The position numbers and the translations under genes are program-made. From contig NZ_GL890973.1 in the NCBI RefSeq assembly GCF_000211815.1, forward strand, positions 103,777-120,230: 16,454 nucleotides of DNA. Reading direction: 5' to 3'. Positions 1 to 16,454 of this stretch are shown here, piece after piece (position 1 is the stretch's first letter; each line of letters begins with the position of its first letter). Origin of the DNA: Moorena producens 3L. Its GTDB lineage: Bacteria; Cyanobacteriota; Cyanobacteriia; Cyanobacteriales; Coleofasciculaceae. Below the pieces are notes generated by a model. The model was given only the letters and a program-made list of their open reading frames with translations. It searched no databases and was not told the origin of the DNA.

Positions 1-1230
1 TCTATCCCAATAGCGAATTCCGTAGCTATGGTAGAGGAAATCTTGGACTTCGATACCTTGGCTGAGCTGAAGTGCGCCAGTTGCGATCGCTTCAAAAGGT
101 TTTTGGCAACGAACCTTGCTTGAATCGAAATACCGGTTTACCCATGCCTGAACTGCTGGGATCTTCACCGTCCCACCCACTAACAAGACACCATCTATAT
201 CTGGCACTTCTATACCGCTGCGTCTTGCCTGTTGCAGCACTTCCGTCATCTTATCATCAAGGGTATCAAAAAACTGGTGTTCTTTGAGAATAGTTTCAAA
301 AGTCTCCCGGTCTAGTTTTAGTTCGTAACTCTCAAAGGTTTCATCATTAAAATAGACTTCTGTAGCTTCAGACTGCTCAGATAGTTGAATTTTCAGGCGT
401 TCTGCTAGTCGAGTAGTCAAAGGCGATCGCATTAACCCTTGAGTTTCCACAAAATAATCCACCAGCCAGTTATCAATATCTGTCCCACCCAAATTTTGTC
501 CCACTTTCGCCAGCACACGGGCAATTTTCACCTTCTGGCTAGACCCTTCACCAAATGACTTTTGCCCCCACTTAAGAATAAACCCGATAGGTTTTTTATT
601 CCCTTGAGCCTCCTGATTCAGCTGCACCAGAGATAAATCCAGAGTGCCACCACCAAAGTCTATAACTAGTAGAGTATCCCCTTCCGCAATACCATAGCCC
701 AAAGCAGCCGCTGTCGGTTCATCCAGCATCCTCACCTGTTCCACTGGCAAGGATTGGCAGATTGCACTAAGCCAATGGCGGTAGGCTTCAAAGCTATCCA
801 CAGGCACAGTCAGAATCACCGATTCAATGGCAGAATCCCCCGCCTCGGACTGGAGGGCTGATAGGTCTTCAATAATTTGGTTGAGGAACCATTCCCCAAC
901 TTGTTCAAAGGTGATCACGGTGCCATCCAGTTCTGGCAGAAATCCCTGAACCTCAGCACCAATCCCCCGTTTGAAGCTGCGGAAGAATCGAGGGTCACTG
1001 CTGAGATCCAATCCGCGATCGCGTACTGCCTGTCCAACCATAACCTTACCCTGAGCCGCATCTTCCACATACACCAAACTCGGAATTAAGGGAGGATTTT
1101 GACTAAGTTGCAGTGCAAGTCCTGGTAAAGTGATGGTTTCTGGCGTTTCGGTGACTGGGTTCCAGCGAGTGATTACCGTATTGCTCGTGCCAAAGTCAAT
1201 AGCGTAGGACGTAGTACTGGTGCTAGGCAT
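1..1230 (-). CDS. Hsp70-family ATPase (DnaK/HscC/YegD-like, not canonical DnaK). Partial: the C-terminus lies beyond the window start.
   Basis: Reverse-complement translation from ATG at 1230-1228 gives MPSTSTTSYAIDFGTSNTVITRW... It contains the Hsp70 phosphate-1 motif (IDFGTSNT), phosphate-2 (DFGGGTLD) and adenosine motif (LLVGGTVKIPAV). The frame has no stop down to position 1. A stop lies 5 codons upstream of the ATG. It is missing from the ORF track because it runs off the window. Confidence 0.8.
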   Translation of the reverse strand, partial: MPSTSTTSYAIDFGTSNTVITRWNPVTETPETITLPGLALQLSQNPPLIPSLVYVEDAAQGKVMVGQAVRDRGLDLSSDPRFFRSFKRGIGAEVQGFLPELDGTVITFEQVGEWFLNQIIEDLSALQSEAGDSAIESVILTVPVDSFEAYRHWLSAICQSLPVEQVRMLDEPTAAALGYGIAEGDTLLVIDFGGGTLDLSLVQLNQEAQGNKKPIGFILKWGQKSFGEGSSQKVKIARVLAKVGQNLGGTDIDNWLVDYFVETQGLMRSPLTTRLAERLKIQLSEQSEATEVYFNDETFESYELKLDRETFETILKEHQFFDTLDDKMTEVLQQARRSGIEVPDIDGVLLVGGTVKIPAVQAWVNRYFDSSKVRCQKPFEAIATGALQLSQGIEVQDFLYHSYGIRYWDR

Positions 1231-1403
1231 CAATATTGATTCAACTTATCTTATTAATATTATTTATTAATAAATATCAGTTTATGGACGAACTACTCAA
1301 TAGCCAGGACACCTGTACCCAGGAAGACAGTTTAGCAATCCGTGTCGGAATTGTGATAATTTTTGATGCCATATTCCCGATTCCCTTTGCTATTGCACTA
1401 CAG

Positions 1404-3026
1404 TTATCCCGTAGTTGAAACATCTAACTCTTGCCTAAAGCTTAGCCATGCTCTCATAGCCTCTGGATTAGATGCTACTCCTTTTTGCATCAAAATCACA
1501 CCATCTTTAAAACCAATGATGCCATACTCGTTAGTCTTGGTGACCCGGTCAATCATGTTAACTAAAGAGCGCAACCGCTGACCATCATGCTTAAAGGCAA
1601 TTTGATAGCGTTGTAACCGCCATAAATCTGCGATCGCATAATCCACCTTCACCACCTCGCCATTATCATTGCGCAACTGTAAATCCCCTAAGCGGATGAT
1701 TTCCCGACGTCCTGACAGATGAGGGACTAGATAGGTAGTAGCTGAGACACTAGCATTTGCAGGAATCTGAGCCAGTAATGACCGAATCGACCCCACACGA
1801 GACCACTGTTGGGTTAAGGGCACATAGACGAAGGGTTGGTAGGAATCGGGAAGGAGGAAATAAAAGGTTCGATTTGGGCTAGAGGTAATAGTCAACACTA
1901 CCGCAAGGGTTAGACAAAAAATCCAAAAGCGCCGAAACTTAGACCTAGCCGAGATCACAGCTTGACTAAATTGGGTATGAGCTGACCACCAAAGTATCGC
2001 GCCATAGAATAGCCCAGGTACTACGGTCATCGCATAGCGGATATTAATCGCAAGCACTGATTGACCTTTACCCAACAGAAGTTTTAGCAAGGGAAATGCT
2101 GCGATAGACCAAGAAGCGGGAGCAATAGCTGGTATAAATGCTAATGGTAACCATTGACCTAATAAATACTGAATGGTGCCAAAAAAGGGAGTAAACAGTT
2201 CTACTAGTAAACGCCAAGGATTAGTCAGCATACCCTTAATAATTTCCAGAGTAGACGCCTCATCCCCATCAGCGTACTGACCAAAACGCTCGATCATGAA
2301 CCGTTGAGAAATATCTTCCGAAAATAGGGGCATAATTAGATTGGTCAAGACAAGTATGTAACCGAAACTGAGGGTACAAACTGCCAGACCAATGCGAGGG
2401 TAGCGCCGACTGACTATTAAATAGAATCCCACACCAAACAAACCTATCCCGGAATCTTCCCGTACAGCTAAAATCAAAATTGCCAGCAACCAAAACAGCC
2501 ACCACCAGCGTTTTTCCATAGCTAGCAGTAGCCCAAATACAAATAGCGGAATTTGGCAGATGTCATGGAAATTGGCTAAGGTCGGACCGAGAATAGCATT
2601 AGCACAGTAAAAGCTAACCGTAATCATTGCTGCTAACATCGGTTGCAGATACTGTCTAGCCAGGATATACAAAACTACACCAGCAGCTGTTACCAACGTT
2701 ACCTGCAAAACGGTTAGGGTAGCGGGAAATGGAAACAAAGCATATAACGGTAACCAAAGTAACAGGGCGGGAGTAAAATGTTGCCCTAATCGGTGGTAAT
2801 AGACATTTGGAACTTCCCCATTATGAACTACATTAGTAGACAGCTGGGATGAAAGAGTACTCTGAAAGAAGCTACCGTGAATTCCATTCCAGAAGACTTG
2901 ATTAAAAATTCCTTGATCGTAGGAAGAATAAAAAGTATAGTGTCGATGTAGAGTAAAAATTAAGGTGAATAAAAAAAATGCGATCGCCGCAGTAATAACA
3001 AGTTTTAACCCAGGTTTTTTGGTCAT
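1404..3026 (-). CDS. Polytopic integral membrane protein of 540 aa, possibly DUF2079-like or GT-C-like.
   Basis: Listed 540-aa ORF. It has a dozen or more hydrophobic segments (e.g. LVITAAIAFFLFTLIF and the Trp-rich MEKRWWWLFWLLAILILA). An AAGGA Shine-Dalgarno sits 5 nt before ATG 3026. The N-terminal SYDQGIFNQVFWN resembles the first-loop Asp motif of DUF2079/GT-C membrane proteins. The family assignment is from memory only. Confidence 0.65.
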   Translation of the reverse strand: MTKKPGLKLVITAAIAFFLFTLIFTLHRHYTFYSSYDQGIFNQVFWNGIHGSFFQSTLSSQLSTNVVHNGEVPNVYYHRLGQHFTPALLLWLPLYALFPFPATLTVLQVTLVTAAGVVLYILARQYLQPMLAAMITVSFYCANAILGPTLANFHDICQIPLFVFGLLLAMEKRWWWLFWLLAILILAVREDSGIGLFGVGFYLIVSRRYPRIGLAVCTLSFGYILVLTNLIMPLFSEDISQRFMIERFGQYADGDEASTLEIIKGMLTNPWRLLVELFTPFFGTIQYLLGQWLPLAFIPAIAPASWSIAAFPLLKLLLGKGQSVLAINIRYAMTVVPGLFYGAILWWSAHTQFSQAVISARSKFRRFWIFCLTLAVVLTITSSPNRTFYFLLPDSYQPFVYVPLTQQWSRVGSIRSLLAQIPANASVSATTYLVPHLSGRREIIRLGDLQLRNDNGEVVKVDYAIADLWRLQRYQIAFKHDGQRLRSLVNMIDRVTKTNEYGIIGFKDGVILMQKGVASNPEAMRAWLSFRQELDVSTTG

Positions 3027-3170
3027 TTTTCCTTTGTCATTTGTCCTTGGTATTAAGCTCCAGAAAGTTTCGCTTTTTTAAAACTACTCTTGTTTTCAAC
3101 ACACCCTCACGCTTATCGGGAAAAAGATCTAGCGTTTCTCATAGCTATGAGGTACAAATATTTTTTTACC

Positions 3171-3383
3171 TCTTGCCTCTTGCCTTCCCCTCCTGGGAGG
3201 GGTTAGGGGTGGGTTCCTCTTGCCTTCCCCTCCTGGGAGGGGTTAGGGGTGGGTTCCTCTTGCCTTCCCCTCCTGGGAGGGGTTAGGGGTGGGTTCCTCT
3301 TGCCTTCCCCTCCTGGGAGGAGTTAGGGGTGGGTTCCTCTTGCCTTCCCCTCCTGGGAGGGGTTAGGGGTGGGTTCCTCTTGT
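3171..3383. repeat. 40-bp tandem minisatellite: 5 perfect or near-perfect copies (3178-3377) plus partial flanks.
   Basis: Unit is tcttgccttcccctcctgggaggggttaggggtgggttcc, at 3178, 3218, 3258, 3298 and 3338. There is a single G>A change in copy 4 (3321). Each unit carries the near-palindrome CCCCTCC-TG-GGAGGGG and G-runs (GGGGTTAGGGGTGGG). It lies between the hybrid kinase stop (3443) and the membrane-protein gene start (3026). Confidence 0.95.
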
Positions 3384-3442
3384 CTGCTCCCTGCTCCCTA
3401 AAGCCCATAATTTTGACCTCATTAGTTTGAGAATTGCTATAG

Positions 3443-5005
3443 CTAATTGCGACTACTCCCGAGCCATTCCGAATCAGAACTTCTCACCTCAGACCTCTGA
3501 CCTCTGACTTCCCCATTACTTACTATGGGAATTTTAATCGTAAATGTTGTCCCAACGCCCACTTCGCTAGTCAGTTCAATCTCTCCCTGATGCTGTTCCA
3601 CACAGCGTTTCACAATCGATAGTCCCAGACCAGTCCCTTGAATTGTCCCCACATTTTTGGCTCGATAAAAAGACTCGAAAATTTTCTTTTGGTCTGCTTC
3701 AGCAATCCCAATTCCTTTATCCTGGATGCGGAACACAACCAACTGCTGTTTCAGATCACAAGTTAGGTTAAAGGTCACGATTTCATGAGAAGGAGAATAC
3801 TTCAAAGCATTGGTAAGCAGATTAGTTATAATGTAATGTATAAGTTTATCATCCATACAGACTTCTGTATAGACCCCGTCAGAGGTAAAAACAATCCGGT
3901 TGCGGCTGGCTTGATCTAGGCATAGTTCTGCAATTAAATCCTGGCAGAATTGCTCTAAGTTCATGGGAGTTGGAATAAATTCTAGCCGACCTACTTCAGC
4001 TTGACCGATTAGCAACACCTCTTCCATCAACTCAGTCATGCGCTCTACTGAAATAGTAATTCGTTTTAGATAACGCTGCTTTTGCTCCTGAGTGGCCAGA
4101 TTACCATAGCGCTTAAGTAATTCAGCGGCAGTTAGGATCACACTGAGGGGATTACGGAATTCGTGGCAAACGGTGGAAACGAACTGGGAGCGGAAATCTT
4201 GTATTTCTTGCTCTTTTGCTAACACCTGCTCTAACATTTCTGTTTGAGGTTCCTCGCTGATATCCCAAAACGCCAGCACTACTCCATTCACGTTTCCCAG
4301 TTGGTCTTTTAGGGGTGAAGCACTATTACCAACAGGAATTCGACCACCGTCCTTTGCGATCAAAGCGTTATGCTCGCCCAGATAGACAACTTGTCCGGTC
4401 TTGATCACTTTATCTAGGGGATACTTGACTAGATTACCGGTCAGGTCATTAACAATTGGGAACACTGAGGTCACATCTCGCCCCCATACCTCCGATGCCT
4501 TCCAACCAGTCAGAGCTTCAGCGGGAGCATTCATAAAGGTAATGGTACCTTGGGTCGTGGTAGCAATAACTGCATCATCGATAGAGTTTAAAATGGATGC
4601 CAACTGAGCTTGGCTGTTCTGCAACGACTGCTCCATCTGGTATTGCTGGAGAGCCATTTCAATGGCAACCCGCAAGTCTCTCTCGTTAAACGGTTTGGTA
4701 ACATAGCCAAAGGGTTGGGTAACCTTAGCCCGTTGCAAGGTATCTTCATCCCCATAGGCAGTTAAATAGACGATAGGAATACGTAAATGTTCACGAATTT
4801 GCCTAGCAGCAGTAATACCATCCATCTTGCCTTTGAGGAAAATGTCCATCAGCACTAAGTCAGGCTTAGTTTGAGCGGCTTTGGTAATGGCTTGAGAGCC
4901 AGATGAAGCAGTAGCTGATACCATATAACCCAGTTGCTTAAGCTGGCTAGCAATTGTCTTAGCAACAATAACTTCGTCTTCTACAACTAACACCCTGGTA
5001 ACCAC
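3443..5005 (-). CDS. Hybrid two-component protein: N-terminal receiver (REC), PAS, HisKA and HATPase_c sensor histidine kinase.
   Basis: 520-aa ORF. The receiver fold is seen in RVLVVEDE...PDLVLMDIFL (phospho-acceptor Asp in LVLMD). A central PAS-like segment follows. The H-box is CHEFRNPLSVI and the ATPase G-boxes are DKGIGI and GTGLGLSIV. The start is GTG at 5005, overlapping the upstream TAG stop. Confidence 0.9.
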   Translation of the reverse strand: MVTRVLVVEDEVIVAKTIASQLKQLGYMVSATASSGSQAITKAAQTKPDLVLMDIFLKGKMDGITAARQIREHLRIPIVYLTAYGDEDTLQRAKVTQPFGYVTKPFNERDLRVAIEMALQQYQMEQSLQNSQAQLASILNSIDDAVIATTTQGTITFMNAPAEALTGWKASEVWGRDVTSVFPIVNDLTGNLVKYPLDKVIKTGQVVYLGEHNALIAKDGGRIPVGNSASPLKDQLGNVNGVVLAFWDISEEPQTEMLEQVLAKEQEIQDFRSQFVSTVCHEFRNPLSVILTAAELLKRYGNLATQEQKQRYLKRITISVERMTELMEEVLLIGQAEVGRLEFIPTPMNLEQFCQDLIAELCLDQASRNRIVFTSDGVYTEVCMDDKLIHYIITNLLTNALKYSPSHEIVTFNLTCDLKQQLVVFRIQDKGIGIAEADQKKIFESFYRAKNVGTIQGTGLGLSIVKRCVEQHQGEIELTSEVGVGTTFTIKIPIVSNGEVRGQRSEVRSSDSEWLGSSRN

Positions 5006-6600
5006 TATTGTTGTCCTATTGCTTCTACAATTGTTGCTGTTGAGAATACTATTCTGAAAGCTGTGCCCTCGCTATGGCCCTGAAACATACTCCCGTCTAG
5101 TTGCTCCGTTGCCAGGTCATAAACTAACGATAATCCTAAAGACTGGGTATTACGCCAATCTAACTCTTCTGGTAAACCAACCCCATTATCTCGGACAATC
5201 AATTCAACCTGATCGTCCCCGCTATGGTGCAATTCAATGTGAATCTCACCATAGCGTCCATTGGGAAACCCGTACTTCAGGGAATTGGATACCAGTTCAT
5301 TGATGATTAGACCGCAAGGGATGGCCTGATCAATACTGAGGGAAATGGGTTCAATAGTCGTGTGCAACTGAATCCTATCGCTAGTTACTTGATAAGCTAC
5401 CAGTAAGTTCACCGCTAGGTTCTGGATATAATCCACTACATCCAGGTTGCCTATCACTGAGGCACCATAAAGTTTCTTGTGAATGAGAGCCATGGCTTCA
5501 AGGCGATGGCGAGCTTCCGACAGGTGTACTCGGGTTTGGGGTTGATCTACTGTCAGAGATGGCAAGTGTAGTAAGCTAGAAACAATTTGTAAGTTGTTTT
5601 TGACCCGATGGTGAATTTCTTTGAGCAGCACCTCTTTCTCAACTAGGGTAGCTTTGAGGTTTTCCTCGACCTGTTTGAGCTGTGTGATGTCGATGGCTAT
5701 GTTATGGATCCGAATTGGAGTGTTATTAGCATCTGTGAGGAGGTGAGCACGATGGCGAATCCAACTCACAGCTCCATCCGGTCGCAAAATTCTGTAGTCA
5801 ATATCTTTGGCACCAGTTGACAGCAGGGTTTGGTGTGCCAGTTCATAGGTTTCGAGATCCTCTGGGTGAACCACTGATTCCCACAGGCGTAAGTTTCCGA
5901 AGAACTCAGTGATACTGCGACCATAGACTTGCTCGGTAGCACTGTTAAGATAAAGCAGTTTGTCAATCGAAGGATCAAAAGACCATACCACTGCTTCTAG
6001 GGAAGTCAGAATACTCTCAAGACGTTCTTGGCTCAACTGCCAGGCATGTTCATTTTCCCCCAATTCTTCTTCAAACTGCTGATTGACAGCAACTTCCTGC
6101 TGCCATCGCTGATTAGCTGCCACTAATTCCCCTTCTTTTTGACTCAACTGTTGGTGTAAGTCTTCGACCTTAGTAACAATAGCAGAGAGGATGGCTGGCA
6201 TGGTGTGGGGGGTCACCACACGCACTACTTGACCTGGTTCATCCACTAGGGGTAGGTGACGAATCTGGTGTTGACGTAATCGGGACTCTACCAAAAAAAT
6301 GTCCGGTTTCGCTATGATGGGCAAGGTAATTAACTCTTGAGTCATCACATCAGCGATGGAAACCCCTGAGTTGACCATTCCGGCTGATGCTACTTTGACC
6401 ACATCCCGTTCTGTAAAAATGCCTACCAATTGCTGCTGCTGTACTACCAGCACATAACTCCTTCGAGTTTGATTCATCGTAGCGATCGCTTCCGTTACTG
6501 GAGTATCGGGAGCAATGGTGATCGGCTGCTGGTCGCAAGGAAAATTTACAATGGAAAGTTGACCAGAAATGCCATTTTTCAGGTAATCTTTAGCTTCCAT
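5005..6600 (-). CDS. Sensor histidine kinase with a CBS pair, PAS domain, HisKA_2-type phosphoacceptor and HATPase_c.
   Basis: 531-aa ORF. The N-terminal CBS pair reads ...GIFTERDVVKV...ELITLP.... A coiled-coil linker and a PAS segment (LEAVVWSFDP...) follow. The H-box EIHHRVKNNLQIVSSLL is typical of HisKA_2/HWE kinases. The ATP-binding site is NELVSNSLKYGF...VRDNGVGLP. Confidence 0.9.
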   Translation of the reverse strand: MEAKDYLKNGISGQLSIVNFPCDQQPITIAPDTPVTEAIATMNQTRRSYVLVVQQQQLVGIFTERDVVKVASAGMVNSGVSIADVMTQELITLPIIAKPDIFLVESRLRQHQIRHLPLVDEPGQVVRVVTPHTMPAILSAIVTKVEDLHQQLSQKEGELVAANQRWQQEVAVNQQFEEELGENEHAWQLSQERLESILTSLEAVVWSFDPSIDKLLYLNSATEQVYGRSITEFFGNLRLWESVVHPEDLETYELAHQTLLSTGAKDIDYRILRPDGAVSWIRHRAHLLTDANNTPIRIHNIAIDITQLKQVEENLKATLVEKEVLLKEIHHRVKNNLQIVSSLLHLPSLTVDQPQTRVHLSEARHRLEAMALIHKKLYGASVIGNLDVVDYIQNLAVNLLVAYQVTSDRIQLHTTIEPISLSIDQAIPCGLIINELVSNSLKYGFPNGRYGEIHIELHHSGDDQVELIVRDNGVGLPEELDWRNTQSLGLSLVYDLATEQLDGSMFQGHSEGTAFRIVFSTATIVEAIGQQ

Positions 6601-6689
6601 ATAACCCTTGAAGCGCCAAATTATTGGATACTTTTAGGGAGTCGAAAGATAAACATTAACACAATCCAGTAGCAATTCAAAGAGACGGT

Positions 6690-8597
6690 ATGCATCTCAG
6701 TGAAATTACTCATCCAAATCAGTTGCACGGTCTATCGATTCGTCAACTAGAGGAAATTGCCCGTCAAATTCGCGAGAAACATCTCCAAACCATAGCTACT
6801 AGTGGTGGTCACTTAGGACCAGGCTTGGGAGTGGTAGAATTAACCTTAGGTCTGTATCAAACACTTGACCTTGACTATGATAAGGTAGTCTGGGACGTTG
6901 GACACCAAGCTTATCCCCACAAAATGCTCACGGGGCGCTATAACCGATTCCATACCCTACGGCAGAAAGATGGTATTGCTGGTTATCTAAAGCGCTGCGA
7001 GAATAAGTTTGATCACTTTGGAGCGGGTCATGCGTCCACCAGTATTTCTTCCGCTTTGGGTATGGCCCTCGCCCGAGACCGCAAAGGGCAAAACTTCAAA
7101 GTGGCAGCAGTTATTGGTGATGGTGCTCTGACCGGTGGCATGGCCTTGGAAGCCATCAATCATGCAGGGCATTTACCCCATACTAAACTACTGGTGGTGC
7201 TCAATGACAATGAGATGTCCATCTCCCCCAATGTGGGGGCTATTCCCCGTTACCTCAATAAAGTGCGGCTTTCTGAGCCGATGCAGTTTATTACTGACAA
7301 TTTGGAGGAACAGTTCAAAAATCTCCCCTTTGTCGGTGAGTCTTTATCCCCAGACTTGCAACGGCTCAAGGAAGGGATGAAGCGTTTAGCCGTACCTAAG
7401 GTCGGAGCAGTATTTGAAGAACTTGGCTTTACTTACATCGGACCGGTAGATGGTCACAATCTAGAGGAGTTAATTTCCACCTTTACCAACGCCCACAAGC
7501 TAGATGGACCAGTGCTGGTGCATGTGGCAACTACGAAAGGCAAGGGGTATGCGATCGCAGAAGCGGACAAAGTGGGTTACCATGCCCAAAGTCCCTTCAA
7601 CCTAGCTACGGGTAAAGCCCTTCCAGCTAAAAAACCCAAACCCCCGGGCTATTCCAAAGTGTTTGCCCACACCCTGGTAACACTAGCTCAGAATAATCCC
7701 AAAATCATTGGCATCACCGCAGCTATGGCTACCGGGACAGGGTTGAATAAATTGCAAGAAAAACTCCCTGACCAATACATTGATGTGGGAATTGCGGAAC
7801 AACACGCCGTCACCCTAGCGGCTGGCCTAGCCTGTGAAGGAATGCGACCGGTTGCAGCTATTTACTCCACCTTCTTACAACGGGCTTACGACCAAATTAT
7901 TCACGACGTTTGTATCCAAAACCTACCCGTCTTCTTCTGCCTCGACCGTGCGGGAATTGTGGGTGCTGATGGCCCTACTCACCAAGGGATGTATGATATC
8001 TCCTATTTGCGATGCATTCCCAATATGGTAATTATGGCTCCCAAAGACGAAGCTGAACTGCAACGTATGGTAGTTACAGGAATAAACCACACCGATGGTC
8101 CGATTGCCATGCGCTATCCTCGGGGTAGTGGCTATGGCGTTCCCCTGATGGAAGATGGTTGGGAAGCACTACCCATTGGTAAAGCAGAACTCTTGCGTAA
8201 TGGTGACGACCTGTTAATGGTAGGGTACGGCACTATGGTTTACACCGCCATGCAAACCGCTGAAATTCTTAGCGAGCATGGTATTGAAGCAACGGTGATT
8301 AATGCTCGTTTTGTCAAGCCCCTAGATACAGAATTAATCTTCCCCTTGGCTCAGAAAATTGGTCGTGTAGTTACCCTAGAAGAAGGGTGCTTAATGGGTG
8401 GCTTTGGTTCAGCGGTGGCAGAAGCACTCATGGACAATGATATATTAGTTCCCCTCAAGCGCTTTGGTGTACCGGATCAATTAGTGGATCATGCCAAGCC
8501 CGATGAATCAAAAGCTGATTTGGGGCTGACTGGCTCTCAAATTGCTGAACAGATCAGGGCAGCGTTCTTTAATAGACAGCCATCTTCTGTTAGTTAA
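6690..8597 (+). CDS. dxs: 1-deoxy-D-xylulose-5-phosphate synthase.
   Basis: 635-aa ORF, full-length DXS. It has the TPP-binding [10 protein letters not shown] motif, the N-terminus [15 protein letters not shown] and the transketolase-like C-terminal half. Confidence 0.97.
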
Positions 8598-8605
8598 TCT
8601 ATCAA

Positions 8606-8688
8606 TGTTAACAGTTGACAGTTAACTGTTAACTGTTAACCGTTAACAAAATAGCAATTAACAATTAACAATTAACAATTAACAATAT
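8606..8688. repeat. Heptanucleotide STRR arrays: GTTAAC-containing heptamers (8606-8647) and AATTAAC x4.5 (8655-8686).
   Basis: tgttaacagttgacagttaactgttaactgttaaccgttaac followed by caattaacaattaacaattaacaattaacaat. It lies directly after the dxs stop. GTTAAC is itself palindromic, so the array can form hairpins. Confidence 0.9.
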
Positions 8689-8699
8689 ATCGAACTTAT

Positions 8700-9761
8700 A
8701 TGAACCCATCCACATACCAAGTTTATCCCGTTGTTTGGGAAAACGACCGAGTTATCCTCATTGACCAAAACCGCTTACCCGGCAAATATTCCATTGTAGA
8801 AATCAGCCGCTGTGAAGATATGGTTGAGGCGATTAAAACTATGATTGTTCGGGGAGCGCCAGCTATTGGAGTAGCAGCGGCTTATGGCATTTACCTTGGC
8901 GCAAGAGAGATTAAAACAAAAGAACGTAAGGCTTTCCTCGCAGAGCTTGAAATTGTAGCGCAACAGTTGCGGCAAACTCGTCCTACAGCCGTGAATTTGT
9001 TTTGGGCAATCATGCGGATGCTTAAAAATGCCTATGAAACGATCGGGACAGTAGAAGAGATTAAAGCTTCCTTACTTGAAACAGCTCAACAAATTCAGCT
9101 GGAGGATTTACAAACCTGTCAATCCATAGGCGATCGCGGATTAGAAGTATTACCGACAACCCCCGACAAACTCTGTCTTCTGACCCATTGTAATGCAGGA
9201 GCGTTGGCAACAGCTGGGTATGGTACTGCCTTGGGAGTGGTGCGTTCGGCCTGGCGGGATGGGCGATTAGCCAGATTATATGCTGACGAAACCCGCCCCC
9301 GCTTGCAAGGTGCTAGGTTAACGACCTGGGAATGCGTCGAAGAAGGTATTCCGGTTACTTTAATTACCGATAGCATGGCCGCCCATTGTATGAAACAAGG
9401 GCTAATTGATGCGGTTGTAGTGGGAGCTGATCGCATTGCTGCCAATGGGGATACGGCTAACAAAATTGGTACCTATAGTGTAGCTCTGATTGCTCAAGCT
9501 CATCAGATACCTTTCTTTGTGGCTGCTCCGATCTCAACCATTGATTTTCAGCTATCTACTGGCGAAGAGATTCCCATTGAAGAACGTCACCCCTCAGAAA
9601 TTTATCAGATTGGGGAGACAGTGATTTGTCCTCCTAAAGTGGAATTTTATAACCCAGCTTTTGATGTAACTCCAGCGGAGTTAATCACTGCCATTATTAC
9701 TGAAAAAGGCGCATTAGCCCCCAGTGAGCTGTCACAACTTAACATTAAGCAGTCAGTTTGA
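8700..9761 (+). CDS. mtnA: S-methyl-5-thioribose-1-phosphate isomerase (eIF-2B alpha/beta/delta family).
   Basis: 353-aa ORF. Family hallmarks are the N-terminal ...[22 protein letters not shown]..., then [17 protein letters not shown] and [19 protein letters not shown]. Confidence 0.93.
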
Positions 9762-9775
9762 AATCTATCTTGGTT

Positions 9776-9804
9776 TTAGGGATTAGGGATTAGGGAGTAG
9801 GGAG
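9776..9804. repeat. STRR heptamer array TAGGGAT/TAGGGAG x4.
   Basis: ttagggattagggattagggagtagggag immediately after the mtnA stop. Confidence 0.85.
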
Positions 9805-9805
9805 C

Positions 9806-9846
9806 GGTGCGACCCGTGGCGAATTTAATTACGGGTCAAGCGCACC
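9806..9846. repeat. Bulged stem-loop element, copy A of a duplicated about 25-bp core (copy B at 10134-10178).
   Basis: GGTGCGACCCGT-ggcgaatttaatt-ACGGGTcaagCGCACC. The 5' arm is an exact reverse complement of the 3' arm apart from a 4-nt bulge. The 25-mer ggtgcgacccgtggcgaatttaatt recurs exactly at 10134-10158. Confidence 0.8.
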
Positions 9847-9879
9847 GAGGGAGTGGGGAGTCGGGGTAATAAAATTGAA

Positions 9880-9909
9880 TGTACCTGATAAGGAGTGAGA
9901 AACGCTATA
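9880..9909 (+). repeat. Small dispersed dyad-symmetric repeat, about 30 bp, SDR-like. Other copies at 10206-10234 (+), 3129-3157 (-) and a partial at 10028-10044 (-).
   Basis: Consensus TGTACCTCATAGCTATGAGAAACGCTATA with palindromic core CATAGCTATG. Copies read 9880 tgtacctgataaggagtgagaaacgctata, 10206 tgtacctcataactgtgagaaacgctata, and the reverse complement of 3129-3157 tgtacctcatagctatgagaaacgctaga. Confidence 0.75.
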
Positions 9910-9976
9910 ACTGACCCAACTATGTTTGAGTCAGTTCCTTAGTTCAGCAACCTCTAAAGGATAAAGTCCGATAGCT

Positions 9977-10017
9977 ATGGGTGTTTAGATCATGGGTGTT
10001 TAGATCATGGGTGTTTA
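9977..10017. repeat. 15-bp tandem repeat atgggtgtttagatc x2.7. A second array of x2 lies at 10239-10268.
   Basis: atgggtgtttagatcatgggtgtttagatcatgggtgttta, and again at 10239 as atgggtgtttagatcatgggtgtttagatc. Confidence 0.9.
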
Positions 10018-10058
10018 TAGCAATTATCATAGCTATGAGGTACACAATTTCGGGATTT

Positions 10059-10116
10059 TAGGTAATAGGTAATAGGTAATAGGTAATAGGTAATAGTAAT
10101 AGGTAATAGTAATAGG
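10059..10116. repeat. STRR heptamer array GGTAATA (about 8 copies, two shortened to GTAATA).
   Basis: taggtaataggtaataggtaataggtaatagtaataggtaatagtaataggg. Confidence 0.9.
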
Positions 10117-10372
10117 GATGCGCTGCATCAAGAGGTGCGACCCGTGGCGAATTTAATTCTTAATGGTAAGAGCGCACCTAACAGGGAATCAGCTTCAAAG
10201 AATACTGTACCTCATAACTGTGAGAAACGCTATAGATCATGGGTGTTTAGATCATGGGTGTTTAGATCAAAGCCCTGCAGCTGTAGAACCGTCAACAGTC
10301 AACGCTCAACAGTGAACAAAACATGATCAATTAAAATATGCACATAAAATATCAAATAGCTAAGAGGAAATC

Positions 10373-10990
10373 GTGAACGGAAAACTTTCCACCCAACACT
10401 TAATTGTGTGCGGCTTAGGTGTAGCTATCCCGTTATTATACGCAGAGGTAGCCACCGCCGCCGCTGATCTAACCAATACTAGTGTAACTAACTGGAAAAA
10501 AATTCAGTATGAAAGCTTTCTGCCAAGGCTTGAAACACCAGAATTGTCCCCTCTCGAAGAAGTCAATCACTATCTGCGGCAAGAAGAAGATTTCTTTAAT
10601 AATACCCCTCGTTTAGTGATTAAACTAAGTGAGCGTCGTCTTTATGTTTATCGAGGAGATAAACTCGAAGCCAGTTATCCAGTTGCCATCGGTCAGCCTG
10701 GTTGGGAAACCCCTACAGGCAATTTCCAAGTGACACAGATGGTTCAAAATCCAGTTTGGAAGCATCCTCTAACTGGTGAAGTCGTTGCTCCAGGACCAGA
10801 AAACCCTCTTGGTCCAAGGTGGATGGCATTTTGGAGTGATGGAACAAACTACATCGGGTTTCATGGTACCAATGATGAGGAACTGGTGGGACAAGCAGTG
10901 TCTCACGGTTGCATCCGGATGCGTAATGATGATGTCAAAGCTTTGTATAACAGAGTGGCTTTGGGAACATCTGTAACAGTACAGGAATAG
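10373..10990 (+). CDS. L,D-transpeptidase (YkuD/ErfK family), secreted.
   Basis: 205-aa ORF. The N-terminus MNGKLSTQHLIVCGLGVAIPLLYAEVATAAA is hydrophobic and signal-peptide-like. The YkuD catalytic region is YIGFHGTNDEELVGQAVSHGCIRMRNDDV (His...SHGC Cys). Start is GTG at 10373, with AAGAGGAAA Shine-Dalgarno 4-12 nt upstream. Confidence 0.9.
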   Translation: MNGKLSTQHLIVCGLGVAIPLLYAEVATAAADLTNTSVTNWKKIQYESFLPRLETPELSPLEEVNHYLRQEEDFFNNTPRLVIKLSERRLYVYRGDKLEASYPVAIGQPGWETPTGNFQVTQMVQNPVWKHPLTGEVVAPGPENPLGPRWMAFWSDGTNYIGFHGTNDEELVGQAVSHGCIRMRNDDVKALYNRVALGTSVTVQE

Positions 10991-11000
10991 TTATTGTTGA

Positions 11001-11040
11001 CAGCTGCCCCTAGCTAAAGCTAGGGGATTGAGGCAGCTTG
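11001..11040 (+). terminator. Two-tier hairpin 11 nt after the transpeptidase stop. Possible terminator or stability element; it lacks a U-tract.
   Basis: CAGCTGC-CCCTAGC-taaa-GCTAGGG-gattga-GGCAGCT. The inner stem is 8 bp (cccctagc/gctagggg) and the outer stem is 7 bp. No T-run follows, so an intrinsic terminator is uncertain. Confidence 0.4.
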
Positions 11041-11087
11041 ATCAGGGTGGGCACAAGATGGTGATTCAAGCTTTTTGGTATATATAG

Positions 11088-11129
11088 CAGAAGTCAGAAG
11101 TCATTTGTCAGAAGTCATTTGTCAGAAGT
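11088..11129. repeat. 14-bp tandem repeat cagaagtcatttgt x about 2.7, preceded by TATATA (11081-11086).
   Basis: cagaagtcagaagtcatttgtcagaagtcatttgtcagaagtaaaac. Confidence 0.8.
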
Positions 11130-11147
11130 AAAACTCTTGCGCTTCTT

Positions 11148-11191
11148 GATGCAGTCGCTCATGGGGGAAACCCCCAAGACCGCGCTGCATC
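11148..11191 (+). promoter_or_regulatory. Extended stem-loop in the region upstream of ccdA (putative 5'UTR).
   Basis: GATGCAGtcgc-tcat-GGGGG-aaa-CCCCC-aagaccgcg-CTGCATC. A 7-bp outer stem encloses a GGGGG/CCCCC stem with an AAA loop. The motif GCGCTGCATC also occurs at 10121-10130. Confidence 0.4.
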
Positions 11192-11307
11192 GCTTACAAA
11201 GGGTGTGAGACTTTTGTCATGTCCTAACTGCCCTGGCGACTGCTATATCCCTGGGATTTGGCCACTCTACTTGAGGGGTTCAATACGCTAAAATTCAAGC
11301 AAACTGG

Positions 11308-12063
11308 GTGTTAAAATTCCCTATGCTTGACACATTCTCGACTCAACTCTATCAACTCCAACAATTCGCTAATAACCTGGTTGACAGCCAACTGACTCAC
11401 CTGAGCCTAGTCAGCATAGCCATCATCTTTGCTGCTGGGTTGCTGACTAGCCTAACCCCCTGTATGCTATCAATGCTACCGATCACGATTGGCTACATCG
11501 GTGGTTATGAAAATCAAGGACGGCTGCAAGCTGCTACCCAATCGGTATGGTTTTCCTTAGGCTTAGCCACAACCTTAGCTGCATTAGGAATTATCGCAGC
11601 ATCTATCGGGCGAGTCTATGGTCAAATCGGTGTTGGCTTACCGATTATTGTGAGCCTAATCGCCATTATTATGGGGTTGAATTTACTAGAAGCACTACCG
11701 CTACAGTTTCCAACTTGGGGTGGTATGGATTGGATTTCCCAGGAATGGCCGAAAGGGTTACGCTCTTATCTCATTGGTTTGACCTTCGGTTTAGTTGCGT
11801 CTCCTTGCAGTACACCGGTATTAGCAACGTTACTGGCTTGGGTTGTCTCAACTAAAGATTTAGTGTTAGGTGGTGCCTTGCTGTTGTCTTATACAGCTGG
11901 TTATGTGGCACCCTTGATCTTGGCAGGTACGTTTACTGCTTCAATTAAACGATTATTAGAATTGCGACAGTGGTCGAGTTGGATTACACCAGTAAGTGGT
12001 GCGCTATTGGTGGCATTTGGTGTGTTTTCGTTGTTGTCTCGGATTCCTGTGGGAATTTTTTGA
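11308..12063 (+). CDS. ccdA: Cytochrome c-type biogenesis protein CcdA (DsbD-family thiol:disulfide transporter).
   Basis: 251-aa ORF with 6 or more TM segments. The two conserved CcdA cysteines sit in LTSLTPCMLSMLPI and LVASPCSTPVLATLL. The tool start is GTG 11308; the alternative ATG at 11323 (MLDTFST...) is equally plausible. Confidence 0.9.
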   Translation: MLKFPMLDTFSTQLYQLQQFANNLVDSQLTHLSLVSIAIIFAAGLLTSLTPCMLSMLPITIGYIGGYENQGRLQAATQSVWFSLGLATTLAALGIIAASIGRVYGQIGVGLPIIVSLIAIIMGLNLLEALPLQFPTWGGMDWISQEWPKGLRSYLIGLTFGLVASPCSTPVLATLLAWVVSTKDLVLGGALLLSYTAGYVAPLILAGTFTASIKRLLELRQWSSWITPVSGALLVAFGVFSLLSRIPVGIF

Positions 12064-12084
12064 CTGAGTACTGAGTGCGTCGTA

Positions 12085-12228
12085 AGCTATCAGCTATCAG
12101 CTATCAGCTATCAGCTATCAGTTATCAGCTATCAGCTATCAGTTATCAGCTATCAGCTATCAGCTATCAGCTATCAGCTATCAGTTATCAGCTATCAGCT
12201 ATCAGTTATCAGCTATCAGCTATCAGCT
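12085..12228. repeat. STRR heptamer array AGCTATC/AGTTATC of about 20.5 copies, organised as two identical 63-bp higher-order blocks.
   Basis: Units 1-9 (12085-12147) and 10-18 (12148-12210) share the same C/T variant pattern C-C-C-C-C-T-C-C-T. Two further units and a partial follow. Confidence 0.92.
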
Positions 12229-12348
12229 TATGCGCTACGCGCAATGGACTTTTCTGGTGACTTTCAATTATCATAAATCTCGAACTATTAAATTCTCTCG
12301 TTTGCGCACGCTACGGGAACGGCGCACGCTACGCTGGGTTTATTTTAA

Positions 12349-12397
<49 letters not shown>

Positions 12398-12464
12398 GCT
12401 ACTGAGATTCTTTTCATAAATCTGCTCATCCTATTCAGAAAACAAGTAATTAACTAGACTGAAT

Positions 12465-13907
12465 ATGACTTTAGAAAACTCATCAGATAACTCATCAGAT
12501 AACTCATCAAATAACTCATCAGATAACTCATCAAATAACTCATCAAATAACTCATCATTGAATAGTAGCAGTCGGTTGTGGCGTCGGTTAGTATCAGTGC
12601 TGGCTAACTTACGGTTAGCGATTATCTTGCTGCTTGCGATCGCATTCTTTAGCATCAGCGGTACAGTTATTGAACAGGGTGAATCTCTGGCATTTTACCA
12701 AGCTAATTATCCTGAAGACCCAGCGTTGTTTGGTTTCCTGAGCTGGAAGGTGTTGTTGCTGCTAGGGTTAGATCATGTCTACCGGACTTGGTGGTTTTTG
12801 TCCTTATTAGTGTTATTCGGTAGTAGTCTGACCGCCTGTACCTTCACTCGTCAATTTCCAGCTTTAAAAGCAGCCCGGAATTGGAAGTTTTACAAAGAAC
12901 CCCGCCAGTTTGGGAAACTTGCTTTGAGTGTAGAGTTGGACAAGGGGTCTTTTACTTCCCTCACTGAGTTGTTAGAGAAGCGGCGTTACAAGGTATTCCA
13001 AGAGGGGGATACTATCTACGCCCGTAAAGGAATTATCGGACGGATTGGTCCAATTGTAGTACATGCCAGTATGTTGATTATCCTGGGAGGGTCAATTTGG
13101 GGCTCAATGACAGGATTTACGGCTCAGGAAATGGTTACCAGTGGCAATACATTCCAAGTTAGAAACATTATTGATGCCGGTCCGTTTGCTTGGCCCCAAA
13201 TCCCCAAAGATTTGTCAGTGCGGGTGAATCGTTTCTGGATTGATTACACTCCATCCGGGGATATTGATCAATTTTACTCCAATCTGTCAGTTTTGGATAG
13301 TCAAGGTGAGGACATTGACCAAGAGACTATCTATGTGAATAAGCCCCTAAGATATCGAGGTGTCACCTTTTACCAAACGGATTGGGGGATTGCTGGGGTT
13401 CAGGTGCAGTTGAATAATAGTCCAATTTTCCAGCTTCCCATGGCACAACTTCCCACTAATGGTGAGGGACGGATTTGGGGCACTTGGGTTCCCACAAAAC
13501 CTGATTTAAGTGAAGGGGTATCCCTTTTAGCTAGGGATTTGCAGGGAACCCTGTTTGTTTATGATGGAACGGGTAATCTCGTTTCAAGTGTTCGTTCTGG
13601 TATGGGGATTAAGGTCAATGGGGTGATACTTAAAATTAAAGATGTCATCGGCAGCACTGGCTTACAAATTAAAGCTGACCCGGGTATTCCCTTTGTTTAC
13701 ACTGGCTTTGGTTTACTGATGTTAGGGGTACTGATGAGTTATGTCTCCCACTCTCAGATTTGGGCATTACAAAAAGGCGATCGCTTTTATATTGGTGGGA
13801 AAACCAATCGTGCTTTGGTCACCTTTGAACGGGAATTGATTGAGATTTTAGAGCAGGTGGGTGAATCATCCCAGACCGTAGAACCTTTACTAGCTAAATC
13901 TGCTTAG
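12465..13907 (+). CDS. ccs1: Cytochrome c biogenesis protein Ccs1/ResB (CcsB, System II).
   Basis: 480-aa ORF. The ResB-family N-terminal signature is [50 protein letters not shown]. It has a large soluble domain and the C-terminal [25 protein letters not shown]. It lies directly downstream of ccdA. The true start is uncertain: ATG 12465, or in-frame TTG/GTG after the repeat. Confidence 0.9.
12478..12561 (+). repeat. In-frame 12-bp tandem repeat AACTCATCA(G/A)AT x7 inside the 5' end of ccs1.
   Basis: It encodes (N)[26 protein letters not shown]. The variant order is G,G,A,G,A,A. The opposite strand reads [11 protein letters not shown]... Confidence 0.9.
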
Positions 13908-13958
13908 TATGACCGCGATCCAGCTTCCGAACAGGGGAGCCAGTGCCGCCAAGACGTG

Positions 13959-16454
13959 CTAGTTGTTCAATAGATACTTGTTCAATTCTGCAGTTAGACC
14001 CTCAACTTGAGGGGCTTTCATAATAGTGAAATGGTCTCCAGTAATAGTGTGAGTTTGGATATTACCTAGAACTAGAGAACCCCAGCCGTGGGTTGGGTCT
14101 TCAATTACTGCTGGGGAAGTTTGACTAGCATTTAGAAGGAGAACTGAACCTGGATAAGCTTGTGGTTGATAATAAGAGTTTGCTGCTAGATTTGCTTGAA
14201 AAACTTCCCATAAAGAACGCATTTGCTCTATTTCTAGGTCTGATGGGAATATCCCTTGCTGTTTGGCTTGCTCAAATAGATGCAAAACTTGCTGGGATGC
14301 TTCAAGTTGTCTAAGTGTTTCATGGGATATATCTAACTCTTGACCATAAAGACCTCCCAAATCTTGAGCCAATAGATTTACTATCATGGCTTGATCTATT
14401 TCTGAAGGTTTCCGAATTAAAGTGGGTGCATAACTGTCTATTAACGTTAGAAGAGCCACTGGCTCATTTTTAGCCTGTAATTGTTGTGCCATCTCATAAG
14501 CAATTACACCTCCAAAAGACCAGCCTATTAGGTGTAATGGTCCTTGGGAATGAATTGGCTTTATTGCCTCAATATAATGGGATGCCATCTCCTCAACAGA
14601 AGTTAAGGGTTGCTGTTGTCCATCTAAACCAAGAGATTGTAAACCATATACTGGATAATCTTGATCTAAATGACGAGCTAACTCTGCATAACACAGGACA
14701 TTACCACCACCAGGGTGAATAAAAAACAAGGGGGGTTGGTTTCCACTGGTTTTAATGGGAACTAATATGGAGTGAGATGTATCTACTGAACAATCCAGAA
14801 AGCTGGCTAACTGTTCAATGGTTGGACTTTGGAAAAGGGTTGCTAAAGGCAAATTGATTTGGAATTGTTGTTTAATCTGGGACATTAAACGGACAGCCAG
14901 TAGAGAATGTCCTCCGATTTCAAAGAAGTTGTCATGTATTCCTACATCTGGCACTCCTAGAACATTGGCGAAGATGTTGGCGATTATTTCTTCGGTTGGA
15001 GTACATGGAGCTACATATTCCTCCACCCTGCTGAAAACCCCATCAGGTGCAGGTAGGGATTTGCGGTCTACTTTGCCGTTTGGTGTTAAGGGCAGGGTGT
15101 CTAAGGTAACGAAGGCACTGGGCACCATATAGTCTGGTAGTTTCTGAAAGAGGAATTCTCGTAGTTGCTTGGTGCTTAGTGATTCGGACTGACTGACATA
15201 ATAGGCGACTAGGCGTTTGTGACCAGGAACATCTTCTGTTACAATTACTGCGGTTTGTTGGATGTGGGGATGGGTGGACAGTACTGATTCTATTTCCCCT
15301 AGTTCGATGCGGAAACCCCTGATTTTGACTTGGTTATCGATCCGACCGAGAAATTCAATGTTACCGTCTCGTCGGTATCTCGCCAGGTCTCCGGTTTTGT
15401 AGAGTCGTTCTGAAAAGGAACTACACAAGGGATTTGGGATGAATTTTTCTGATGTTAGTTCTGGGCGATTTAGGTATCCTCTGGCTAGTCCATCACCTCC
15501 TAGGTATAATTCTCCGGGTACGCCTATGGGTACTGGTTCCAGGTTTTTGTCTAGGATATAGATTTGGGTGTTGGCGATGGGGCGACCTATGGGGGGAAGT
15601 GATGACCAATCACTGGGAAAACCATTTAATTTAAAAGCACTGACCACATGAGTTTCTGTTGGTCCATACTGATTTTCTAGACGGCAATTAGACAGTTTTT
15701 CAAAAAAGTTCCTGAGGGTGGGAGTAATTTGTAACTGTTCTCCTGCGGTAATCAATTCACACAGTGTAGAGGGTAGACATTCCGGACTAGTCAAAGCACT
15801 AGTCGCTAAGTATTCTAGAGCCACAAACGGTAGAAAGAGTCTTTCGATACCTTGTTGTTTGAGCAATTGCAATAAGGCAGTTCCATCTCTTCGTACATCT
15901 TCTGGTATCAATACTAATGTTCCACCTGAACACCAAGTAGATAAGATTTCTTGGAAGGAGACATCAAAGCTTATCGGTGTAAATTGCCCAGTTTTTGTGC
16001 CGTATTTGGCAGAGGAGTTTTTCAACTGCCACAGGATAAGATTAACCAGAGGACTATGGTTCATGGCAACCCCCTTAGGTTGACCAGTAGAACCAGAAGT
16101 ATAAATCACATAAGCCAAATTATGTGAATGAACCCCAACATCAAGATTCTCCCCACTATATTGCTCTATGGCACCCCAATCACTATCCAAGCAAACCACC
16201 TGGGCTTGATTTTGTGGCAAAGATTCTAGTAACGACTGTTGAGTCAACAACACTTCAACACCCGAATCGCCCAACATATAACTCAGTCGTTGGTGAGGAT
16301 AATTAGAGTCCAGGGGTACATAAGCACCACCCGCCTTGAGTATCGGCCCAACAGTCCTACCACCATCTGTACAGAACGTTCCACACAAATACCCACCAAT
16401 ACTTCTGGTCCTACTCCTAAGTTTTGTAGGTGATGTGCTAGTTGATTCGCCTTT
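13959..16454 (-). CDS. Non-ribosomal peptide synthetase, terminal module (adenylation, PCP, thioesterase). The 5' end is partial and a −1 frameshift is present near 16344.
   Basis: Frame a (the 13959..16388 ORF) carries the A-domain cores: A2 LKAGGAYVPLD, A3 YTSGSTGQPKGV, A4 FDVS, A5 NQYGPTETHV, A6 GELYLGGDGLARGY, A7 YKTGDLARY, A8 GRIDNQVKIRGFRIELGEIES, A10 NGKVDRKSL. The PCP is FFEIGGHSLLAVRL (Ser codon 14904-14906). The TE is GWSFGG (Ser codon 14517-14519). Stop is TAG at 13961-13959. The listed 'M' at 16388 is really a TTG codon; the frame stays open to the window edge. Upstream of about 16344 the NRPS-like sequence (KANQLAHHLQNLGVGPEVLVGICVERSVQMVVGLLG) is in a different frame. Confidence 0.88.
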   Translation of the reverse strand, partial: KGESTSTSPTKLRSRTRSIGGYLCGTFCTDGGRTVGPILKAGGAYVPLDSNYPHQRLSYMLGDSGVEVLLTQQSLLESLPQNQAQVVCLDSDWGAIEQYSGENLDVGVHSHNLAYVIYTSGSTGQPKGVAMNHSPLVNLILWQLKNSSAKYGTKTGQFTPISFDVSFQEILSTWCSGGTLVLIPEDVRRDGTALLQLLKQQGIERLFLPFVALEYLATSALTSPECLPSTLCELITAGEQLQITPTLRNFFEKLSNCRLENQYGPTETHVVSAFKLNGFPSDWSSLPPIGRPIANTQIYILDKNLEPVPIGVPGELYLGGDGLARGYLNRPELTSEKFIPNPLCSSFSERLYKTGDLARYRRDGNIEFLGRIDNQVKIRGFRIELGEIESVLSTHPHIQQTAVIVTEDVPGHKRLVAYYVSQSESLSTKQLREFLFQKLPDYMVPSAFVTLDTLPLTPNGKVDRKSLPAPDGVFSRVEEYVAPCTPTEEIIANIFANVLGVPDVGIHDNFFEIGGHSLLAVRLMSQIKQQFQINLPLATLFQSPTIEQLASFLDCSVDTSHSILVPIKTSGNQPPLFFIHPGGGNVLCYAELARHLDQDYPVYGLQSLGLDGQQQPLTSVEEMASHYIEAIKPIHSQGPLHLIGWSFGGVIAYEMAQQLQAKNEPVALLTLIDSYAPTLIRKPSEIDQAMIVNLLAQDLGGLYGQELDISHETLRQLEASQQVLHLFEQAKQQGIFPSDLEIEQMRSLWEVFQANLAANSYYQPQAYPGSVLLLNASQTSPAVIEDPTHGWGSLVLGNIQTHTITGDHFTIMKAPQVEGLTAELNKYLLNN

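Follow-up and report, generated by a model that had tools for sequence, protein, structure and literature searches.

Is the last module of a nonribosomal peptide synthetase (NRPS) broken in the cyanobacterium Moorena producens 3L, or is it broken only in the deposited sequence of that strain? The question is raised by a 16,454-nucleotide (nt) stretch of the 3L contig NZ_GL890973.1 (positions 103,777 to 120,230), hereafter the window, at whose far end an NRPS adenylation (A) domain on the minus strand changes reading frame between its A1 and A2 motifs. An earlier reading of the window from its sequence only had noted two extra nucleotides there; it put forward a homopolymer-type sequencing indel or true inactivation of the gene and, as a less likely option, programmed frameshifting. 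The two nucleotides are present in the window and are absent from every relative that we compared. We conclude, with modest confidence, that the frameshift is probably a consensus (sequencing or assembly) error in the 3L draft that was passed into later 3L records; this cause is one that we infer. Of the explanations first suggested, the sequencing indel is therefore the one favored, and the inactivated gene is retained in second place.

The Frameshift and Its Two Reading Frames

When the minus strand is read from the window edge (first codon 16453-16451), it encodes KANQLAHHLQNLGVGPEVLVGICVERSVQMVVGLLG, continues into RYSRRVVLMYPWTLIILTND, and ends at a TGA codon at 16285-16283. The -1 frame, on the other hand, reads ...GGRTVG-P-ILKAGGAYVPLDSNYP... 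and is open down to the stop at 13959-13961; in the list of open reading frames (ORFs) it appears as 13959..16388 (-), with 809 amino acids (aa) and a TTG start. The 36 codons upstream of the shift specify exactly the residues that precede ILKAGG in the JHB protein WAN69458.1 and in the protein of strain SIO3A2.

At the site itself the codons of the window are CTG TTG GGC CGA TAC TC. The 3L minus strand has TTGGGCCGATA where relatives have TTGGCGATA or TTGGGGATA, a difference of one additional G and one additional C in adjacent runs. The insertion is not a tandem duplication, one base having been added to each of two neighboring runs (GG to GGG and C to CC). Its placement is ambiguous across 16345-16349, and an equivalent description is a G run lengthened from 2 to 3 together with a C run lengthened from 1 to 2. 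On re-reading, plus-strand positions 16341-16350 are indeed TATCGGCCCA, as the sequence-only reading had stated, and both the two-frame translation and the relatives bear out its frameshift of +2 nt between the A1 and A2 motifs. Some details need amending: the extra pair, given as "cg", is best described as one G plus one C (the net gain of two is unaffected), and the upstream frame does stop soon after the shift, but 20 codons on rather than 14.

As deposited, the A domain does not form one continuous frame through core motifs A1-A10, and a single hidden Markov model match is obtained only after manual repair. The repaired two-frame translation, a check proposed with the original observation, is matched by the AMP-binding profile without a break (residues 2-327, profile positions 31-384). 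The claim that the A, peptidyl carrier protein (PCP), and thioesterase (TE) regions downstream of the shift are intact holds as well, given the profile matches on the repaired translation and the frame that stays open to the stop. The AMP-binding, AMP-binding_C, PP-binding, and Thioesterase matches all lie above the curated cut-offs.

The Site in Related Genomes

Our comparison set comprised Moorena sp. SIO3A2, SIO3A5, and SIO4E2 and M. producens JHB (CP017708.2), which together supply eight copies of the site. Seven of the eight module copies, drawn from all four genomes, read CTG TTG GCG ATA CTC (GLLAIL), that is, TTGGCGATA, which is also the allele of the terminal JHB module; the middle module of JHB reads CTG TTG GGG ATA CTC (GLLGIL), that is, TTGGGGATA. 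The two extra nucleotides are missing from all eight copies, and the window alone has them. GLL-G-ILKAGG, which had been taken as the consensus, has to give way here to GLL-A-ILKAGG (TTG GCG ATA), the reading of the closest relatives, with alanine as the ancestral residue.

The gene is uninterrupted in JHB (WAN69458.1; CP017708.2 locus, 3001-13593) and in SIO4E2 (NEQ07588.1), where it encodes an NRPS of 3530 aa, and the same gene in SIO3A2 and SIO3A5 is open for 2618 aa until it meets a scaffold gap of 100 Ns. More distant orthologues (56-74% identity) all have GLL[G/A]-ILKAGG with no additional residue. The repaired protein is matched by 80 related loci of other genomes, the best of which cover the 830-residue query almost end to end. 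Since the orthologues are single-frame throughout, the ancestral state is one frame. Orthologues of this kind, which the sequence-only reading had set against its own proposal, do away with an ancestral or programmed shift, but they leave the indel in the window standing. Judged from these alignments, the indel is not a chance difference, departing as it does from all eight homologous site copies in the four related genomes and from all of the more distant orthologues. A pattern scan of genome and metagenome contig collections for the site with zero to two extra bases returned no match, the species not being represented in them.

The closest comparison is with SIO3A5, whose contig JAAHHD010000002.1 is 100.000% identical to window positions 1-16345 and carries the same genes and the same NRPS. 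This identity was pieced together from two retrieved stretches, one covering window positions 1-13026 and the other 2465-16345, each at 100%. SIO3A5 lacks the two nucleotides in both of its module copies, and the only differences between it and the window are the 2-nt insertion (16346-16347) and a patch of five substitutions at 16418-16425. The insertion is the sole change unique to 3L in 16,454 nt and lies 108 nt from the window end; a random position would fall this close to that end about 0.7% of the time, and to either end 1.3% of the time. Downstream of the indel there are 0 substitutions in 2,387 nt relative to SIO3A5 and no added lesion or sign of decay. SIO3A5 was a field (environmental) sample from Curaçao (collection code NAC18DEC082ENV), and both it and SIO3A2 were sequenced on the Illumina HiSeq 4000 to more than 30x; these data are independent of the 3L data.

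Public 3L Records

The 809-aa product (window 13962-16388(-)) is exactly OLT63726.1/WP_071986989.1, from an 8,171,464-bp scaffold, and the 772-aa product that begins with the ATG at 16277 (window 13962-16277(-)) is exactly EGJ28634.1/F4Y3F8/AEE88262.1, annotated as "non-ribosomal peptide synthetase module". The public 3L records thus contain the same indel, because the 809-aa protein starts with the residues MCGTFCTDGGRTVGP, an extension that owes its existence to the frameshift only. Three 3L records share the indel, and we found no record from outside 3L that has it. The 90% protein cluster of the window ORF contains no annotated 3L protein that would cover the ~2,750 aa upstream of the site, as might be expected if the 3L assembly broke nearby.

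Module Duplication

Modules 2 and 3 share, in each of the four relatives, a direct repeat of ~2.55 kb that takes in the condensation (C) domain and the N-terminus of the A domain up to the TSGSTG motif. The two copies are 99.96% identical in SIO3A2 and SIO3A5, 99.88% in SIO4E2 (on a gap-free contig), and 97.0% in JHB (at a chromosome locus with no Ns). The JHB copies are identical for 107 nt from the position of the window edge toward the 3' end of the gene, and the first base that distinguishes them (G in module 2, C in module 3) falls exactly at the anomaly. We considered whether the duplication in SIO3A2 and SIO3A5 might be an assembly artefact and ruled this out, as the gap-free SIO4E2 contig and the JHB locus also have it; by this comparison of assemblies the duplication is to be regarded as real. 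The features of the interrupted module and of the duplication are collected in Table 1.

Table 1. Features of the interrupted terminal module and of the module duplication. Coordinates are those of the window, except for the repeat copies in relatives, which are numbered within the retrieved sequence given in brackets.
Feature	Coordinates	Strand	Basis or remark
Two extra nucleotides	16346..16347	-	TTGGGCCGATA against TTGGCGATA of relatives; BLAST and MAFFT against SIO3A2, SIO3A5, SIO4E2, and JHB
Upstream frame: 36 codons, N-terminus of terminal-module A domain (KANQLAHH...VVGLLG)	16346..16453	-	Translation; enters at window edge
Out-of-frame tail: 20 junk codons (RYSRRVVLMYPWTLIILTND) plus TGA at 16283-16285	16283..16345	-	Translation
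Downstream -1 frame, ILKAGGAYVPLD to stop: remaining A domain, PCP, TE	13959..16343	-	0 differences from SIO3A5
Non-homologous N-terminal extension (MCGTFCTDGGRTVGP) of 809-aa ORF, TTG start at 16388	16344..16388	-	Translation
ATG start of 772-aa annotation EGJ28634.1/AEE88262.1	16275..16277	-	5 nt past upstream-frame TGA
AMP-binding (adenylation), interrupted at 16346-16347	15471..16450	-	PF00501, E = 3e-73, repaired translation; coordinates hand-converted
AMP-binding_C	15072..15296	-	PF13193, E = 1.2e-13
PCP (PP-binding)	14796..14987	-	PF00550, E = 7.9e-18
Terminal thioesterase	13992..14732	-	PF00975, E = 1.1e-37
3' end of module duplication, frameshift inside	16084..16454	-	Alignment to relatives
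Repeat copies, SIO3A5 (L002)	13620-16168 vs 16803-19351		
Repeat copies, SIO4E2 (L086)	3248-5806 vs 6431-8989		
Repeat copies, JHB (L085)	5724-8282 vs 8907-11465		
Five-substitution allele patch	16418..16425	-	HHLQNLGV in 3L, SIO3A2, and JHB; HHLLCLGV in SIO3A5 and SIO4E2

The duplication shows some features of its own. To one decimal, its copies are 97% identical in JHB but at least 99.9% identical in the three other strains, with a fixed boundary inside the A domain. This pattern suggests that gene conversion between modules 2 and 3 may be ongoing, the part of the A domain that confers specificity staying distinct. The patch at 16418-16425 varies among strains, yet it matches between both module copies within each strain. 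The distribution of its two forms marks it as a natural allele rather than noise and, as far as alignment can tell, as a clear example, on a small scale, of modules evolving in concert. On both sides of the 100-N gap in the NRPS genes of SIO3A2 and SIO3A5 stands the same 127-mer (19225-19351 vs 19452-19578 in each of the retrieved sequences L001 and L002), and the two sides of the gap probably either overlap directly or hide more copies of the repeat.

Consensus Error or Real Insertion

If the frameshift is an error, strain 3L would in truth have TTG GCG ATA (Leu-Ala-Ile) here, like all of the relatives, and its gene would have an intact terminal C-A-PCP-TE module within a three-module NRPS of ~3530 aa beside ccsB and ccdA. 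The error would have consisted of the addition of one base to each of the two short adjacent runs (GG to GGG, C to CC). Such an error is supported by the restriction of the indel to a single assembly lineage, nearly identical genomes with sequencing of their own lacking it. Its context is probably error-prone as well, with run extensions and a position inside the 2.55-kb duplication, 108 nt from a window end that may also be a contig end. A gain of one base in each of two neighboring runs is, we infer, typical of base over-calling and atypical of a single replication slippage. In older read-overlap assemblies, repeats of this sort lead to collapsed copies, broken contigs, and poor consensus. 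Here, reads from the two gene copies of a near-identical duplication would pile up and contigs would tend to break, and, in the consensus of a collapsed repeat, conflict between reads would begin where the JHB paralogues first differ. The window end probably lies at or near a contig end, and the three 3L records probably rest on one underlying data set. Presumably the 2011 sequencing of 3L was by Sanger/454 and the 2017 assembly a re-scaffolding only, and the three records are probably not independent. One specific route, a gapped merge of the module-2 and module-3 alleles such as TTGGGGATA and TTGGCGATA of JHB, was set aside as unproven: it yields +1 nt against the observed +2, though its position matches the first JHB paralogue difference.

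The other ordinary reading is that 3L truly carries a very recent 2-nt insertion, which arose in the field clone or over decades in laboratory culture, and that the gene is an ordinary young pseudogene. We regard this as quite possible, though not as the probable case. The NRPS would then break off beyond its third C domain, about 90 residues into the last A domain, the rest of A with PCP and TE would be stranded, and, with no working last module or release domain, the pathway would be dead or the cluster silent in 3L. Cultured cyanobacteria are well known to lose the function of secondary-metabolite genes by mutation, the ORF is disrupted relative to intact orthologues, as in a frameshift pseudogene, and the patch at 16418-16425 demonstrates that this stretch does show real strain variation. 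Several observations speak for a real insertion and at the same time weigh against a consensus error. Outside the insertion the window is error-free relative to SIO3A5 (0 in 16,345 nt), so the 3L consensus is in general reliable and any single site in it has a low prior probability of being wrong. The NCBI Prokaryotic Genome Annotation Pipeline (PGAP) called a complete 809-aa coding sequence (TTG start) rather than a partial one, and, given upstream sequence like that of SIO3A2 and SIO3A5, frame B would reach a stop 36 nt past the window end; these points hint that the sequence may continue past 16454 and that the contig perhaps does not end right at the site. All three 3L-derived records carry the indel, which would be real if any of them had been sequenced independently. 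To the case against an error must be added that the sequencing history behind it is a presumed one, that the union of the two JHB alleles gives a gain of 1 nt and not 2, and that the two module copies of the closest relatives are identical at the site, so that a mechanism of conflicting paralogue reads needs a JHB-like middle copy in 3L. Against a real insertion stand its absence from four related genomes, one of them otherwise identical over 16.3 kb; its form, two adjacent single-base run expansions and not one slippage event; the lack of a second lesion or of any substitution downstream (0 differences from SIO3A5, 2,387 nt); and a site in an assembly-hostile repeat near the window end. Both readings are ordinary ones, and a consensus error is the one that we prefer.

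Recoding and Split-Gene Readings

The remaining readings would have the gene function as deposited. A programmed -1 ribosomal frameshift (or a +2 hop) at TTG-GGC-C would produce a full-length NRPS with ...GLLG-P-ILKAGG...; the frames do overlap, the -1 frame is open across the junction, and slippage of tRNA-Gly by -1 from GGC to GGG rejoins the conserved sequence with one added proline. CTG TTG GGC CGA, the only place where a shift keeps the conserved residues, contains no X XXY YYZ slippery heptamer, however, and the 111 nt downstream fold no more stably than shuffled sequence (minimum free energy -29 kcal/mol, mean of the shuffles -28.6, z = -0.11). An Rfam search of the window gave no family match. 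The flanking DNA is identical in the single-frame relatives, so no signal has evolved, and the extra proline is absent from all orthologues and paralogues, every one of them single-frame. Programmed frameshifting, already held less likely in the sequence-only reading, was accordingly rejected for want of a heptamer, a structure, and conservation, and we give it practically no weight. It is just as hard to credit that the insertion is real in 3L and is bypassed by a non-canonical -1 slip on G-GGC-C, leaving an active NRPS with an extra proline between A1 and A2; were this so, it would be a case of recoding inside a megasynthase. Finally, a functional split NRPS might arise by re-initiation at the ATG (16277), with the halves of the A domain reassembling. 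The TGA (16283-16285) and the ATG (16275-16277) are close together, and the 772-aa ORF is annotated as a 3L protein. Such a split would, though, delete the segment from ILKAGG (A2) to SYML and put 20 junk residues in its place, with loss of the conserved core; no relative is split at the site, no docking elements are present, and we consider this outcome exceedingly improbable.

Significance for 3L Annotation

The biological significance is small. The 3L entries EGJ28634.1, AEE88262.1, and OLT63726.1 represent the 3' fragment of a three-module NRPS of ~3530 aa and not a stand-alone module. In genome mining, this orphan cluster of 3L will consequently be scored, wrongly, as fragmentary. A real indel would account for the absence of a product in 3L, whereas JHB, SIO4E2, SIO3A2, and SIO3A5 have the cluster intact; that would be useful to natural-product chemists working on Moorena, yet it would be an event of an ordinary kind. 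This is no new kind of feature, as the NRPS is a routine cyanobacterial one, an intact orthologue exists in JHB, and the truncated ORF has already been deposited.

Other Features of the Window

The other genes of the window encode a DUF2079 protein, two sensor kinases, Dxs, MtnA, a YkuD transpeptidase, CcdA, and CcsB/ResB, cyanobacterial housekeeping functions, and its DUF2079, Dxs, and CcsB proteins are identical to those of Moorena (formerly Lyngbya or Moorea) producens 3L. Nearly all substitutions between SIO3A2 and the window are concentrated in dxs and mtnA (7025-9353), with hardly any difference on either side, which indicates a probable recombination tract between otherwise near-clonal strains.

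Repeats are frequent. Intergenic tandem arrays of heptamers occur at 8608-8686 (TTAACAA), 10059-10116 (TAGGTAA), 12085-12228 (AGCTATC, 20.6 copies), and 12349-12395 (GCTGACC); they are similar to the short tandemly repeated sequences that filamentous cyanobacteria have, and between SIO3A2 and the window the first of them varies by indels of 14 and 7 nt (window 8622 and 8638). A 40-bp unit is repeated 5.2 times (98% match) at 3176-3382, between the DUF2079 gene and a gene for a hybrid response regulator/histidine kinase. Each unit holds the palindrome CCCCTCCTGGGAGGGG, and SIO3A2 differs at the same position of successive units. At 12473-12557, a 12-nt repeat gives CcsB/ResB an N-terminal run of (N/D)NSS; other Moorena have annotated homologues of 426 to 480 aa, a spread due in part to different start calls and possibly to repeat copy number. 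Upstream of ccdA, the 56 bp at 11144-11199 recur perfectly and inverted ~18.5 kb away on the SIO3A5 contig (18359-18414 of the retrieved stretch L003) and constitute a small dispersed repeat.

Comparison with Known Systems

Programmed -1 frameshift sites in bacteria are of the dnaX and IS3-family type. The window resembles them in geometry alone, the downstream frame being -1 relative to the upstream one; unlike them, its site has no slippery heptamer, no stimulatory structure, and no conservation among orthologues, and its product would contain an extra residue. Frameshifts in draft NRPS genes are familiar, be they artefacts or young pseudogenes. The deposited proteins EGJ28634.1, AEE88262.1, and OLT63726.1 are each presented as a stand-alone protein, with no flag as the 3' part of a frameshifted gene for a 3530-aa product.

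The nearest counterparts are the intact NRPSs of JHB (WAN69458.1) and SIO4E2 (NEQ07588.1). Both belong to the same 90% protein cluster as the window ORF, both share the domain order of the window's gene (TubC_N-C-A-PCP-C-A-PCP-C-A-PCP-TE), and in both, as in the window, the 3' end of the NRPS gene adjoins ccsB/resB and ccdA. The DNA of the JHB terminal module equals that of the window across the last 371 nt, except for 2 nt. The JHB and SIO4E2 genes pass through TTG GCG ATA in one open frame, whereas the window has two extra bases at this point and a premature TGA.

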